NCBI GenBank assembly: GCA_014905635.1
Contig: JABVCE010000025.1
Coordinates: 372,001 to 436,000 of the forward strand
Origin: Scenedesmus sp. PABB004
Taxonomy: Eukaryota
Direction: 5' to 3'
Length of the DNA: 64,000 nucleotides
In this document: positions 5,911-57,015 of the stretch, one piece after another
How the letters are laid out: the number at the start of each line of letters is the position of its first letter
How positions within the stretch are numbered: position 1 is the stretch's first letter
Made by a program: the position numbers and the translations under genes
The notes under the pieces: model-generated
What the model saw: the letters and a program-made list of their open reading frames with translations, nothing else
What the model was told of the DNA's origin: nothing
Database searches by the model: none

Positions 5911-8244
5911 ATGGCGTCGCTCAGGGTGACCGACCTGCCCGCAGCAGAGGTGCGCGGCGGCGTTTGCGCTCGCCGCCAGCAGCGGCCGGCGGCAGCGGCC
6001 GCGCCGGCGCGGCGGCGACCGCGCAGCTGCCTGTGCGGCTGGGCGCGCACAGGCCGCCCGTCCGACACCGCAGCCGGCCCGCGCGTCCGGCGGCCGACGC
6101 GCGCCGCGCGCGGCGGCGGCGGCGCAGGCGGTGCTGGTGCCGACCGAGACGGTGCCCGAGACGCCGATCATCCGCGGCGTCGACTTTGCCAAGGGCTGCG
6201 ACCTCGACGCCATCATGGGCGCCATGCTGACCAGCGGCTTCCAGGCGACCGCGCTGGGGCAGGCGATCGACGAGGTCAACCGCATGGTGCGCGCCCGCGG
6301 CGCGGGGGCGGGGGCGGCTCACCCGCTGCGCCGCAATGGCTCAGCCGCGCGCCCGCGATGGCTCAGCCGCGCGCCCGCGGCACACCCAGCTGCTGCGCCG
6401 CGGGGGCTCAGTCGCGCCGCTGCTGACGCGCGCGCCGGCAGATCAACTGGCGCCTGGAGGACGACCCGGTGCCGGCCAACGCCGACCCCGCGCACGCCGA
6501 CCCCGCGTTCCGCGCGGCCACGCGCACCAAGATATACCTGGGCTACACCTCCAACCTCATCAGCGCGGGCGTGCGCGAGCAGATCCGGTGCGCCGCCGCC
6601 GCCGCCGCCTCGCCGCCGCGGCCTGCAACCCGCGGGGCCATCGCGCGCGGCGCGGCGAGCGTCGCTGCGAGCTGAACGCGCTCGTCCCGTCGCGCTGGCG
6701 CCAGGTGGCTGGTGCAGAACCAGATGGTCGACGTCATCGTCACCACCGCGGGCGGCATTGAGGAGGACTTCATCAAGGCACGCGTGTGTGTGTGTGTGTT
6801 GAGTGTGTGTGTGTGTGGGAGGGGGGGGGGGCGCACAGCACAGCACAACAGCACACACAGCGCGCGCTTGGCGGGGGCGCACGGCAGCCTGTCCCTCTCA
6901 GGGGCGCGCAGGGCCCCGCGCCGCCGACACCGAGCCGCCGCCGCCGCCGCCGCCGCGGCTGCGGCGCGCAGTGCATGGGCCACACCTACGTCGGCGACTT
7001 CAACCTCAAGGGTGCGGCGGCGGCTGCGGCGGCAGCCCCTAGCCAGGCGGCGTCCGCCCGCCCGCCCGGCCGCCGCGCACGGCCGCGCGCTCACCCACAC
7101 CCCCCACACCCGCCCGCCCGCGCGCGCGCGCGTACTCGCACACACACCCGCTGGCGCAGGCAAGGAGCTGCGCGCGCAGGGGCTCAACCGCATCGGCAAC
7201 ATGCTCGTGCCCAACAGCAACTACTGCCTGTTTGAGGACTGGATCATGCCCCTGCTCGACGACATGCTGGAGGAGCAGAAGACCCAGGGCACCGTGTGGA
7301 CGCCGTCCAAGGCGCGCGCGCGCGCCGCCGTTGGCGTTGCACGCCGCCGCACCGCGACCGCGCCCGCCGCCGAGCCCCGCCGCTCATCACTCACCGCTTC
7401 CTGCACCCGCGCCCGCGCCGTACGCCCTGCCGCTGCGCCCCGCGCGCCGCGCCGCGCCGCGCAGATGATCGCGCGCCTCGGCGCCGCGATCGACCACCCT
7501 GACAGCGTCTACTACTGGGCGGCGCGGCACGGCATCCCCGTGTTCTGCCCCGCCATCACCGACGGCTCCATCGGCGACATGCTCTTCTTCCACTCCTACC
7601 GCAACCCCGGGCTCGTCGTCGACGTCGTCGGCGACATTCGCGCGATCAACGACTCGGCCATGCGCGCGGCGCCGCGGCGCACGGGGATGATCATCCTCGG
7701 CGGCGGTGCGGGCCGGCGCGGCCTGGCCGGCGCGCGGCGTGGTCGGCGCGCGCGCGGGCCGCCCGCCCCTGCTCTCTCTCCCTCTCTCTGCCTCTCTCTC
7801 ACCCCTGCACCCACCCAACCCACCCAACCCCCGGCTGCCCCGGCGCGGCGCGCAGGCGTGCCGAAGCACCACATCAACAACGCCAACCTCATGCGCAACG
7901 GCGCCGACTTTGCGGTGCTGCTCAACACAGCGCAGGAGTTTGACGGCAGCGACAGCGGCGCCAAGCCCGACGAGGCGATCAGCTGGGGCAAGATCAAGCC
8001 CGACGCGCGGCCGGTCAAGGTCTGCGGCGACGCGACGATCCTGCTGCCGCTGCTGCTGTCGCAGACGTTTGTCAAGTTCTGGGGCAAGCGCGACGCGCTG
8101 CGCGGCGCCGCCGCGGCGGGCGGGGACGCGGCGGGCGGGGGGCGGCGGCAGCGCAGCAGCAGGCGGGGGAGCAGCAGCAGCAGCCGCAGCAGCCGCTGCC
8201 GCAGCCGGCGCCGACGCAAACAGCTGGCGGCGGCGGCGGCCTGA
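5911..8244 (+). CDS. DHS: Deoxyhypusine synthase, 8 exons
   Basis: [87 protein letters not shown]. Confidence 0.97.
6785..6817. repeat. (GT)n microsatellite followed by a G-run in DHS intron 4
   Basis: gtgtgtgtgtgtgtgttgagtgtgtgtgtgtgg. Confidence 0.9.
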
Positions 8245-53213: not shown

Positions 53214-56200
53214 TCACTTGCCGCGGCCGCGGCCGCGAAAGCCGCCGCCGCCACGCCCGCCGCGCCCGCCGCGCGCCCCGCGGAAGCCGCCGCCCCTGCT
53301 GCTGCCGCCGCGCCCGCCTCCCCGGCCGCCTCCCCGGCCGCCTCCCCGGCCGCCGCGGAAGCCGCCGCCGCCCCGGCCACCGCGGCCGCCGCCGCCTCCG
53401 CGCCCGCCGCCGCCGCGCCCGCTGCCGCGGCCCTTGCTGCGGCCGCCCTGGTCGGCGCGCCACGCCTCGCTGCGCGCCTTCTGCGGCAGCTGCGCCGCCC
53501 AGGCCTGCTGGAAGCGGTTGCCGCCGGCGTCGCCGTCGTCGTCGTCCTCGTCCTTCTTCTTGCGGACCTTCTTGACCTTGCCGCGGTCGTACTCGGCGTC
53601 CCACTCGTCGCGCTCCGCGCGCTTGGGGCGCCCCGCCCCCGCGCGCAGCGCCGCCGCGGCGGACGCGAGCCCCGCGTCGGCGCCGTCCCAGCCGCCGCCG
53701 CCGCCGCCCACGGCCAGCTGCAGCGCGGCGGCGCCCGTCACCGCGGGCGACGCGGGCGCCTGCTGCCGCTGCTGCGCCTGCTGGGCCTGGCGCCGCTGCT
53801 GCGGCGCCTGCTGCTGGACCTGCTGCGGCGCCTGCTGCTCCGCCGCCTGCTGCTGCTGCTCCTCCGCCTGCCGCCGGCGCTTGGCGGCGCGCTTGTCGCC
53901 GTCGCCGGCGCCCGGCAGCTCCTGCTGCGCGGGCGCCGGCTCGGCCGCCGCGCGCTGGCGCTTGCCGCCGATCAGCCCCAGGTCCACGACCGTGGGCTGC
54001 CGCGCGGCCGCCGCGGCGGGCGCGGGCGGGCTGCCGCCGAGCGCCGCGATCGCCGCGGCGGCCGCCGCCGCGCGCTGGCGGTGCTTGGCGTGCGCCGCCT
54101 GGCGCGCCTTGGCCGCGACGACCGTCTTGTGCAGCGCCATGTGGCGGTCAAAGGAGTTGAGCAGCAGCGCCGGCCGCGAACGCGTGTGGTGGTGGTGCGC
54201 CGCGTGGTGGTGCAGGCCCTTGGCCGGCGAGGGCCCGCCCGCCGCCGCCACAGGCGACTCGACCGCGTCCGGCGACCTGCGCGGCGGCGCGGGGCGGGGC
54301 TCAGGGTCGCGGCGGCGCGCCGGCCCGCGCAAGAGGGGCGGGTTGGGGGCGCGGCGCGGCGCAAGGGGTCGGCAGACAGGGTTTCTGAGGCCCTAGCACT
54401 TTGTCGTCACTGTCACGCTCGGTGCCCAGTGCGTGTCGTCACTCCCCTCGAGCGTACGCGCACGCGCGCGGCCGCTGCGCGGCCGCCGCGCAGCCGTCGC
54501 CCCCCCAGCAGCGCGCTCACCGCGGCTGCGCGGCGCCCGGGCTCGCGTTGGCGGTGGACTCGGTGGACGACGTGGCCACCTTGCGCAGGCCCTCGGCGGC
54601 GCTGGCGCTGCCCGACTGGCCCGCCGCCGCCGCCGCCGCGGCGGCGAGGTGCAGCTGGCGCTGGCGCTCCGCGCCCGTCAGCCCCGCGCCGCCGCCGGGC
54701 GCGGCGGCGCCGCCGCCGCGGCCGGGCGTGCGCGTGCTGTTGCTCGCGGCGCCCGCCGCGTCGGCCGCGGCGGCGCGGTTGGCCGCCGCGGCGGCGCCGC
54801 GCGCAGCCGCCGCGACCGCGGCCGGCAGCGCGCCCGCGCCGGCCTTGGGCGTGCGGCGGACGTAGAAGAGGATGTAGGCCTGCTGCCCCTCGACCGCGCG
54901 CTGCCCGACCTGCGCGACGCGGTGGTCGTCGCAGAGGTGCCAGATGCCGTTCCCCGCCTTGACGTAGCACACGTAGTGCCCGCTGTGCAGCGAGTGCCCC
55001 AGGTGCACGAGCACGGCGTAGAGGTCATACATGACCGGCGCGGCGTGCCCCGCGCCGTGGTGGCCGCCGTGGTGGCCGTGCGCGTGGTGGTGGCGGTGGT
55101 GGCCGCCGGCGGCGTGGGTCATGTAGGGCGCGAGGTCGAGCTCCAGCCCAAACTCCACGCGCTTGCTGAGCTTGTGCCCGCGGCCAAAAAAGTCAAAGCG
55201 CTTCAGGTGCACGGTCAGCACGTTGGGCGCGTCGTCGATGCTGATGCGCTTGTACGCGCGCACCTGGACGCGCGCGGCGCGGCGCGGCGAGCGGCGCGGC
55301 GAGCGGCGCGGGCGCGGGCACGGGAGGTGAGCGGCCGCGCGGCTGCGCGGGCCGCGCGCGGGGAGCAGCCAGCGCGGCGGCGCGGCGCGGCGCGGGGTGC
55401 GGGCGCGGCGGCGCGGGGTGCGGGCGCGGCGCGGCCGCACCAGCTTGTTGTTGCGCGGGCAGCGGTAGCGGTTGTCGCCGTCGAGCACCTCGGCGGCGGT
55501 GAAGTGCTGCAGCGCGCGCGTGAGACTGTGGGCCTTGTTGATCTCGAGGCTCAGGTCCAGGAAGGGGTCGAGCGTGGACGAGGTGTAGTCGACGCCCTCG
55601 CACGTGATCTGGGACCGGCGACGCGCGGCGGTGGCGGGCGAGTTGGGCGCGGGAATGCAGACGCGCGGCGCGGCCGCCGGTGCGTGCCACGCATGCGCGT
55701 GCGCACCTGGCTGCGGAGCTTGCCGCCAAAGATGCGCTGCACAAACGTCGTCGCCGCGAGCTCGGGCGGCGGCTTGGGGCGGATGGGCTTGAGCAGTGCC
55801 TCGTGCATCGCGTCCAGCACGCAGCGCAGGTACTCGTGCGCGTCCTCCTGCCGGCCCAGGCGGAACCTGCGGGCGGCGCGCGGGCGGGCGGCGCGCGCGG
55901 CACGCGGGCGGCGCGCGCTGGTGAGGCGGGCGGCGCGGGGGCGGCGCCGCGCGAGGGGGCGCGGGCGCGCGCGCGGCGCGGCGCGCTTCTGGCGGCGTGT
56001 GTCAGTGTAACTATGACATAAGACAGAGCATCACGTGCCGCGGGCCCCCCAGAACGGGGGGCGTGTGCGGCTCAACTGTGAGCGGATCATCAACCACACG
56101 CCGCGCCCGCCGCGCCGCCGCGCGGCTCCGCACGCGCCCGCGCGCCCCGCCGACGCCGGCCCCGCCGCCGCACCTGCGGTTGATGGCCTTGAGGTTGCGC

Positions 56201-57015
56201 GCGTGCCACTTGGGCTGCACCGGCGCGTGCGACGAGAGCGCGCGCCGGATGTGCGACTGCGTGGCGGCGACGGGGTCGAGCGCCGCCGCCTCGCCCGCCG
56301 CGTTGCTCAGCGCCGCGCCGCCGAGGCAGAGCTCCGCCAGCGGCGCCGTGTGCGTGAGGCACTGCAGGACGCTGTTCATGAAACAGGTGTTGCCCAGGTT
56401 GACCAGGCCCGCGCCCTGCCGCACGGGCCGCGGGGCGCGGCGCGGCGCGTCAGCGCGGCGCGGCGCGCGGCGCGGCGCGCGGCGCGGCGGGGGCCGACGG
56501 GGGCAGGCCAGCGCCGGGGGCGGGGGCGAGCGGCACGGGCGTGCCGCGCCGGCGCGGCGGCCGGCGGCGGCCGGCGGCGCGCCGCAGCCGCCGGCGGCTC
56601 GCGCAGCAGCGGCGCCGGCGGCGGCGCGGCCGCCGGCGCGCCGCGCCGCCCCGCCGCGCGGCCGGCGCGCTCCGGCGTGGGCGCGGGTGTCTCACCGCCT
56701 TGCGGGGCGAGCCCCAGCGCAGCTTGACCGCGCTCTCCGCGCACAGGGGGCGCGCCAGGCCAGGGCTGCTGCCGCCCTTGCCGCCCTCGCGCGGCGTCAC
56801 GCCGGACGGCATCTGCGGCGGGCCGGGCGCCTCGGGGACCGCGCTGGCGGCGCGACGGGCGCGGCGGCGCGCGGCACGGGGCGCACCTCGGGCGCCAGCG
56901 CCACCAGGCGCGCATCCGGCGCGCTGCTGTGCGCGTCGGGCTTCTGCGCCGCCACAAACGTCAGGCGGCGGAACGGCAGGCTGGAGGAGTTGTGGGAGGG
57001 CAGCAGCTCGCGCAT
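53214..57015 (-). CDS. Ubiquitin-specific protease, USP36/USP42/UBP23-like, with a C-terminal RGG tail
   Basis: Cys box GLVNLGNTCFMNSVLQCL, GRQEDAHEY, LTVHLKRF, His box VHLGHSLHSGHYVCYV, QAYILFY, C-terminal DEWDAEYDRGKVKKVR and RGG repeats. Confidence 0.92.
54364..54448 (-). ncRNA. Intronic box C/D snoRNA, predicted guide for LSU rRNA Cm (yeast C2197; snR76/SNORD88/snoR118-like)
   Basis: Terminal stem AGGGG/CCCCU. C GUGACGA (54436-42), D' CCGA (54419-22), C' GUGACGA (54404-10), D CCGA (54369-72). The 10-nt guide GCACUGGGCA is complementary to conserved LSU UGCCCAGUGC. Confidence 0.75.
55996..56100 (-). ncRNA. Intronic box C/D snoRNA, predicted guide for LSU rRNA Am (yeast A2256; snR63/SNORD46-like)
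   Basis: Terminal stem CGUGUG/CACACG. C UUGAUGA (56087-93), D' UUGA, C' GUGAUGC, D CUGA (56002-05). The 11-nt guide GUCAUAGUUAC is complementary to LSU helix 69 GUAACUAUGAC. Confidence 0.85.

Follow-up and report, generated by a model that had tools for sequence, protein, structure and literature searches.

A predicted intronic snR76/SNORD88-type box C/D snoRNA of Scenedesmus with C·C in place of U·U in both kink-turn motifs

The snoRNA, its host intron and its family

We examined a 64,000-nt (64-kb) stretch of the genome of Scenedesmus sp. PABB004 (contig JABVCE010000025.1, positions 372,001 to 436,000), referred to here as the window, and within it a putative box C/D small nucleolar RNA (snoRNA) whose boxes depart from the usual sequences at positions that face each other. 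The element lies on the minus strand at 54450..54362 and is 89 nt long including its terminal stem, an extent taken from the sequence and from a cmscan alignment to the whole SNORD88 model (positions 1-91 of 91). A first-pass annotation of this DNA had placed it at 54364-54448, which is the same element minus the outermost stem pairs. It is located in a 244-nt intron on the minus strand (54277..54520), predicted from a GT at 54520-54519, an AG at 54278-54277 and the flanking reading frames. Splicing from the GTGAGC donor (54520) to the CAG acceptor (54277) would join two open frames in phase, in agreement with the intronic position originally proposed, and the snoRNA would then start 70 nt past the 5′ splice site and end 85 nt before the 3′ splice site.

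All elements of a box C/D snoRNA can be read from the sequence. The 5′ arm of the terminal stem, CGAGGGG (54444..54450), is followed by a single A and pairs with the 3′ arm CCCCUUG (54362..54368) to form 7 bp, one of them G-U, which are also present in the minimum free energy fold. Box C, GUGACGA (54436..54442), has C rather than U at its position 5 (54438). The D′ antisense element GCACUGGGCA (54423..54432), preceded by CAC, is the same as the consensus guide of SNORD88 and stands in the same register. It adjoins box D′, CCGA (54419..54422), after which an 8-nt spacer leads to box C′, again GUGACGA (54404..54410). A 31-nt spacer, containing an element recognized by comparison with relatives (GGGCCUCAGAAACCC, 54379..54393), separates box C′ from box D, CCGA (54369..54372), which has C rather than U at its position 2 (54371).

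Each box therefore deviates once from the strict consensus (RUGAUGA for box C, CUGA for box D), and the deviations fall at facing positions. In box C/D geometry, position 5 of box C lies opposite position 2 of box D, forming the 3b·3n pair that adjoins the sheared G·A pairs; therefore, C·C replaces the usual U·U in both motifs. This coordination of GUGACGA with CCGA in C/D and C′/D′ had been the central claim of the first-pass annotation, and it is present in the sequence as described. The remaining core of the terminal kink-turn is predicted to be intact: G54440 and A54439 of box C would form tandem sheared G·A/A·G pairs with A54369 and G54370 of box D, and the G54437-C54372 pair, a 3-nt A-G-U bulge and the 7-bp stem complete the motif. 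Box C/D kink-turns in archaea and humans are described as having U:U at 3b:3n and G:C at 4b:4n, both strongly conserved (PMC5689011). The window snoRNA departs from the first of these norms in both motifs, where it has C:C, and keeps the second, with G:C at both -1b:-1n and 4b:4n.

The host gene, at approximately 53214..56691 on the minus strand with an undefined 5′ end, was identified from Pfam matches, solved structures and open reading frames (ORFs) as that of a USP36-like ubiquitin carboxyl-terminal hydrolase whose C-terminal exon is RGG-rich. Its protein matches the Pfam UCH domain (PF00443, E 7e-31), and its best solved relatives are structures of human USP36 (8bs3 and 8bs9, E 7e-11). 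The last exon (53214-54276, minus strand) encodes a Gln/Ala-rich low-complexity stretch and then a long RGG/GGRG-rich tail. Since such a tail fits a nucleolar protein, the snoRNA is likely hosted by a nucleolar deubiquitinase.

With regard to family, the SNORD88 model aligned over its full length to the window snoRNA at 36.5 bits (E 2.5e-5 on 8 kb and 2e-4 on the 64-kb window), and both the guide and the conserved element upstream of box D are common to the window snoRNA and the members of Rfam clan CL00071. The proposed snR76/SNORD88 identity is upheld by these matches. An Rfam search at gathering thresholds gave no match anywhere in the window. The fifth base from box D′ is G 54427; since the SNORD88 guide stands in the same register, this base would face the third C of the large subunit (LSU) rRNA motif UGCCCAGUGC, the assignment that the first-pass annotation had made, with the rRNA motif taken from homology. 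In yeast, snR76 is tabulated as the guide for 25S Cm2197 (PMC5199042). As an exact 9-mer, the guide has a single occurrence in the 64-kb window.

The element upstream of box D (GGCCUAGAAAACC / GGGCCUCAGAAACCC) lies 5-9 nt from the box and is kept in fungus-like, plant-like and alga-like members of the family, unlike the bases adjoining box D, which vary. It is too distant from box D for a standard guide, and it may provide accessory pairing beside the D′ target.

Covariation among relatives and in Ostreococcus tauri

We scanned metagenome sequences with the pattern TGANGANNNGCACTGGGCNCNGA, in which position 5 of box C and position 2 of box D′ were left free, and obtained at least 125 matches at no fewer than 117 loci (at least 126 matches with the window). 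A conserved downstream motif served as the family filter and retained 87 rows including the window, or 67 distinct sequences; these and the following counts hold among the matches listed. The 39 matches that the filter dropped appeared by eye to be mostly chance occurrences lacking a D box and stem, apart from a few real-looking snoRNAs with UGAUGA/CUGA (L035 and L079), UGAAGA/CUGA (L028) or UGACGA/CUGA (L115).

The two facing positions of the terminal motif co-vary. UGACGA/CCGA was found in 10 of the 67 distinct sequences, counting the window, and UGAUGA/CUGA in 55 (53 directly, and two more, L029 and L116, after their D boxes had been corrected to CUGA). UGAUGA was never combined with CCGA (0/67), and the two remaining sequences have UGAUGA/CAGA (L014) and UGAAGA/CUGA (L055). 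With L115 added as the lone C·U case, a Fisher test on the counts 10/1/0/55 gave p = 5e-11, a value that overstates independence because the sequences are related. L115 is a probable family member and the only mixed state seen, UGACGA opposite CUGA, and it may represent an intermediate.

Within the subgroup most like the window snoRNA, which is marked by GGGCCU(C)AGAAA and by stems of the GAGG/CCUC type, 10 of 21 distinct sequences are C·C, 11 are U·U and none is mixed. One of them, L066, is 79.8% identical to the window snoRNA over 89 nt, and both L066 and L087 carry all four variant boxes, as the window snoRNA does. Both states also occur side by side: a tandem cluster, met four times (L016, L030, L044 and L089) on contigs of about 49% GC, holds three copies within about 1.1 kb, two with UGACGA/CCGA and one with UGAUGA/CUGA, each with its own intact, compensated terminal stem. 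The test positions were masked for a maximum-likelihood tree, on which the distribution of the C·C state requires 6 changes; its clustering does not exceed that in shuffles (133 of 500 were as low). Since at least two of these changes are forced by well-supported branches, the state appears to have switched at least twice, with both positions changing jointly each time. The number of independent switches is uncertain, because the tree is a weak one, with good support for 2 of its 18 inner branches, and its rows are related. The ten UGACGA/CCGA sequences against no UGAUGA/CCGA sequence, together with the joint switches on the tree, indicate that the coordination is real covariation and not an accident.

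The internal motif follows the same tendency less strictly. In the alga-like group, D′ CCGA stands opposite C (the window, L066 and L087) or G (L052, L057 and L061), and D′ CUGA stands opposite U, G or C. A general rule that D′ CCGA is never opposite U was considered and rejected; it holds for the six alga-like cases only, and fungus-like members pair D′ CCGA with various C′ bases, so that the internal rule is loose.

The surroundings of the relatives gave little. A scan for further C/D candidates in the flanks of the metagenome loci (at least 117) returned too few matches to inform, and a tblastx and blastn comparison of the host region with the same loci matched the snoRNA alone and gave no host synteny. 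One fungus-like family member (L024) is clustered with Afu_300, snR75 and Afu_513, and a plant-like one (L060), a snoR118, is clustered with snoR66 and snoR109.

A similar pattern is found in the snoRNA catalogue of Ostreococcus tauri, which is based on sequencing of size-selected RNA and on northern blots and gives its sequences in Supplementary File 3 (PMC7671301). Ten of the sequences there have CCGA as terminal box D, and it lies opposite C in nine (Ot-CDsno10, 14, 19, 36, 61, 85, 93, 107 and 129), opposite G in one (Ot-CDsno76, with box C AUGAGGA) and opposite U in none (PMC7671301). Two of the nine have otherwise unusual C boxes (AAGACGA in Ot-CDsno14 and AGGACGA in Ot-CDsno19), and Ot-CDsno107 is variant in all four boxes (AUGACGA/CCGA/GUGACGA/CCGA); UGACGA occurs with CUGA in Ot-CDsno34, 49, 75 and 111 (PMC7671301). 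Ot-CDsno10 reached 3593 transcripts per million (TPM) and is shown on a northern blot (PMC7671301). The passages of that paper found by text search contain no remark on C·C pairing. The C·C kink-turn is therefore a real, co-varying variant of a known family, already present without remark in one published algal catalogue. The suggestion that the window snoRNA represents an unannotated class consequently does not hold as a whole, since snoRNAs with UGACGA/CCGA are listed there, if without comment (PMC7671301). Our literature searches found neither a terminal box C/D motif with C·C nor its covariation described, although three papers that may bear on novelty (Chen 2008, Kuhn 2002 and Watkins 2002) were outside what these searches covered, and those directed at box variants gave only comments on degenerate C′/D′ boxes.

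Competing explanations

The reading that we favor, at a probability of roughly 0.8, is that the window holds a functional, intron-encoded box C/D snoRNA, a chlorophyte orthologue of snR76/SNORD88/snoR118 in which the C·C pair is tolerated and selectively maintained. The snoRNA would be released from the last intron of the USP36-like gene and would assemble with Snu13, Nop56/Nop58 and fibrillarin, and its D′ guide would direct 2′-O-methylation of the LSU cytidine at the position of yeast Cm2197. A D box reading CCGA would be accepted opposite a C-box base that is C (or G). Evolution toward C·C would probably have passed through C·U (UGACGA/CUGA), a state common in plants, and a GC-biased mutation spectrum probably makes that route likelier. 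Expression, protein binding and methylation in Scenedesmus we infer from the sequence and its relatives.

Several points weigh against this reading. The score of 36.5 bits is below the Rfam gathering score of 46, and the assignment of the Cm2197 equivalent as the target in Scenedesmus draws on the guide shared with SNORD88 and on the conservation of the rRNA motif. The predicted fold energy is no better than that of shuffled sequences (z = -0.33), although C/D snoRNAs usually fold no better than shuffles. The comparative evidence has its own weaknesses: the metagenome rows are related sequences, the tree has few well-supported branches, the label alga-like refers to likeness to the window RNA and not to the contigs themselves, and the boxes of the O. 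tauri snoRNAs were read off plain text by eye, the color marks of the paper being absent. Published structural work adds a further point. In Kt-7 duplexes, C at 3b favors protein-free folding in Mg2+ and Watson-Crick pairs prevent it (PMC4382518), and kink-turns with C-C belong to conformational class N1, those with U-U to class N3 (PMC4914095). C·C is thus not simply equivalent to U·U. Furthermore, a C-U pair lowered the affinity of an archaeal L7 protein, according to a paper citing Kuhn et al. 2002 (PMC6461891).

It could be argued that the element is a decaying, non-functional intron relic whose boxes drifted under GC-biased mutation while a canonical paralogue elsewhere is active. The boxes of both kinds are off consensus, the Rfam score is sub-threshold, and at about 79% GC changes from U to C are to be expected. 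However, all four changes are at mutually facing positions, and nothing has been lost from the G·A/A·G pairs, the closing G-C pair, the 7-bp terminal stem or the guide of 10 nt. L066 and L087, although their sequences differ at other places, retain the same arrangement of four boxes, as does Ot-CDsno107, and all ten family members with a CCGA D box among the matches listed have it opposite C. The paralogue that a relic would call for is not in evidence nearby, the 64-kb window having no second copy of the guide. We therefore regard decay as improbable. That the whole resemblance is due to chance, or to an error of sequencing or assembly in this GC-rich intron, seems very remote. CCGA is indeed frequent in the window (289 occurrences on the minus strand), but the element matches a covariance model over its full length (E 2e-4) and is the single UGACGA/CCGA candidate in 128 kb, counting both strands; the same boxes recur in homologues that were assembled independently, and four concordant errors at paired sites are implausible.

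A further alternative accepts a functional snoRNA but holds that C·C alters its behavior, whether through conformational class, protein-free pre-folding, assembly, stability or regulation, so that these RNAs would form a distinct green-algal subset. The promotion of Mg2+-induced folding by C at 3b of Kt-7 and the N1/N3 difference, both cited above, speak for it, as does the retention of C·C beside a U·U paralogue in the L016 tandem cluster. Against it, the Snu13 of O. tauri, whose sequence is printed in the supplement of the catalogue, is not known to show any obvious oddity relative to the human protein. Snu13 aside, the abundance of O. tauri snoRNAs varies widely, which the authors of the catalogue ascribe to stability (PMC7671301), a point in favor of altered behavior. 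However, G:C at -1b:-1n and 4b:4n, as in the box C/D context and in the window snoRNA, suppresses ion-induced folding regardless (PMC5689011), and all Kt-7 3b·3n variants tested fold with L7Ae (PMC4382518). On analysis, altered behavior appears quite unlikely, and we retain the reading of a functional snoRNA in which C·C is tolerated.

More tentatively, the C·C snoRNAs may constitute a distinct, maintained green-algal subclass of box C/D kink-turns, defined by C·C at the 3b·3n position, and follow a directional rule, in which C at 3n would occur only opposite C or G and C at 3b would also tolerate U; the likely route would start at U·U and reach C·C by way of C·U. We consider this possible but doubtful. 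Since work on Kt-7 has placed C-C in N1 and linked C at 3b to protein-free folding, the C·C small nucleolar ribonucleoproteins (snoRNPs) of such a subclass would either assemble differently or rely on Snu13 with Nop56/58 to override the sequence rules. If it exists, the subclass would allow the sequence rules of kink-turns to be tested on natural RNAs and would argue for wider box definitions in snoRNA finders for GC-rich eukaryotes.

The first-pass annotation had also attributed the boxes to GC pressure and spoken of a rewriting of the snoRNA code. The window is about 79% GC throughout, and among the matches listed the C·C loci are GC-richer on average (medians of about 0.60 vs about 0.52 for U·U loci; Mann-Whitney p 0.01, with non-independent loci). 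However, the contigs of the C·C relatives span 49-68% GC among those matches, so that C·C occurs even at 49% GC, and a neighboring intron of the same gene keeps U·U; GC pressure is therefore at most a bias. The snoRNA in that upstream intron (56102..55994, minus strand; found by a box-plus-stem scan) has canonical boxes, UGAUGA at 56092-56087 and CUGA at 56005-56002, and an 8-bp stem (GGCGUGUG/CACACGCC). Since it retains UGAUGA/CUGA, the notion of a genome-wide rewriting is not borne out. The D guide of this second snoRNA, GUCAUAGUUAC, is of the snR13/U15 type, with the Am in GUAAC of the LSU as its predicted target, and the target of snR13 is Am2280/2281 (PMC5199042). It was not reported by Rfam at E <1.

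Detectability, neighboring genes and known systems

It had been suggested that finders based on consensus boxes would overlook the window snoRNA. This is correct in part, as strict-motif finders would be affected by the boxes and the box changes would add to under-annotation. However, canonical-box relatives fare no better with Rfam: in a test of 14 alga-like rows, every one, whether C·C or U·U, scored below the gathering thresholds of CL00071 (30-53 bits), whereas plant-like L060 and L009 passed that of snoR118, and a covariance model does find the window snoRNA (E 2e-4). Since both kinds of box score below gathering, the under-annotation of these RNAs in algae appears to be mainly due to divergence from the seed alignments. 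A published survey found green-algal homologues of land-plant snoRNAs hard to find (PMC5122169), and the present locus ties a chlorophyte snoRNA to the snR76/SNORD88/snoR118 family. U·U is generally regarded as close to invariant, and snoRNA finders assume it. The window locus, its relatives and the O. tauri catalogue together indicate that the double change to C·C is tolerated and recurrent, in one or both motifs. In green algae and other GC-rich eukaryotes, genes of this kind will be missed or scored too low by snoRNA annotation. The C·C snoRNAs are also natural substrates for studying how the pair next to G·A affects folding, conformational class and snoRNP assembly.

At about 79% GC, the window has long spurious open frames in all six frames. 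Stop-to-stop ORFs of 150 aa or more number 288, and of the 100 longest only 18 have a Pfam match. Genes recognized include those for an A_deamin editase-like protein, Gcd10p, SURF1, a gamma-tubulin complex component, URO-D, a kinesin, SF3b10, DapB, a thioesterase, PMM, a GatB-like protein and a class 3 lipase. A single open frame of 522 aa for deoxyhypusine synthase (6676-8241, plus strand) is matched by Pfam DS in four stretches, and a (GT)n-like repeat lies nearby at about 6790-6830, which suggests GC-rich insertions or short in-frame introns. The synthase is most similar to chlorophycean proteins, with 59-61% identity to Tetradesmus obliquus and a transcriptome entry, 54% to Raphidocelis and Monoraphidium and 51-52% to Volvox and Chlamydomonas, so that the source alga belongs to the Chlorophyceae. 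The box-plus-stem scan, run over both strands of the 64 kb and requiring at least 5 bp of stem, gave one UGACGA/CCGA candidate, one UGAUGA/CUGA candidate and one likely chance match, a UGAGGA/CCGA candidate at 6749-6942 that was set aside as it lies in the deoxyhypusine synthase region and spans the GT-repeat.

Among known systems, the U4 5′ stem-loop and the Kt-7 variants resemble the window snoRNA in being kink-turns of the Snu13/15.5K/L7Ae type with a variable pair after the G·A pairs. The U4 kink-turn has mostly G-C or G-U at 3b·3n (PMC4382518). However, these are other RNAs or engineered model duplexes, in contrast to a natural box C/D kink-turn. The closest family is clan CL00071, comprising SNORD88 (RF00604), snR76 (RF01209) and snoR118 (RF01424), with which the window snoRNA shares length, box order, the conserved element upstream of box D and an identical D′ guide, GCACUGGGC, in the same register to D′. 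It differs in having GUGACGA/CCGA in both motifs where the clan has RUGAUGA/CUGA, and it scores under the gathering threshold of every family in the clan, as the canonical-box algal relatives do.

Land plants share the C at position 5 of box C. C boxes reading UGACGA are common there, as in snoR44, U61, snoR15 and snoR39BY, and are kept across many species (PMC5122169, supplement 2). However, among the 30 such entries listed, box D stays CUGA, giving C·U, in all 24 that are terminal C boxes (PMC5122169). The first 30 of 140 occurrences of CCGA in that compilation comprise 29 D′ boxes and one terminal box D (PMC5122169). That UGAUGA/CCGA never occurs would be too strong a statement, being contradicted by wheat snoR120-8, a homology-predicted copy with terminal CCGA opposite UGAUGA. 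The C′/D′ motif of CrCD03 pairs CCGA with G, as L052, L057 and L061 do. C at position 5 of box C is thus widely tolerated, C at position 2 of box D is rare and nearly always opposite C or G, and the full C·C state is a green-algal feature within the data examined. Known snoRNAs with this pairing are those of O. tauri named above, whose guides and targets differ from those of the window snoRNA. O. tauri belongs to the Mamiellophyceae, a class other than that of the window alga. It too is a green alga, and the nine snoRNAs in question likewise combine C at position 5 of box C with CCGA as box D and have been detected as RNAs.

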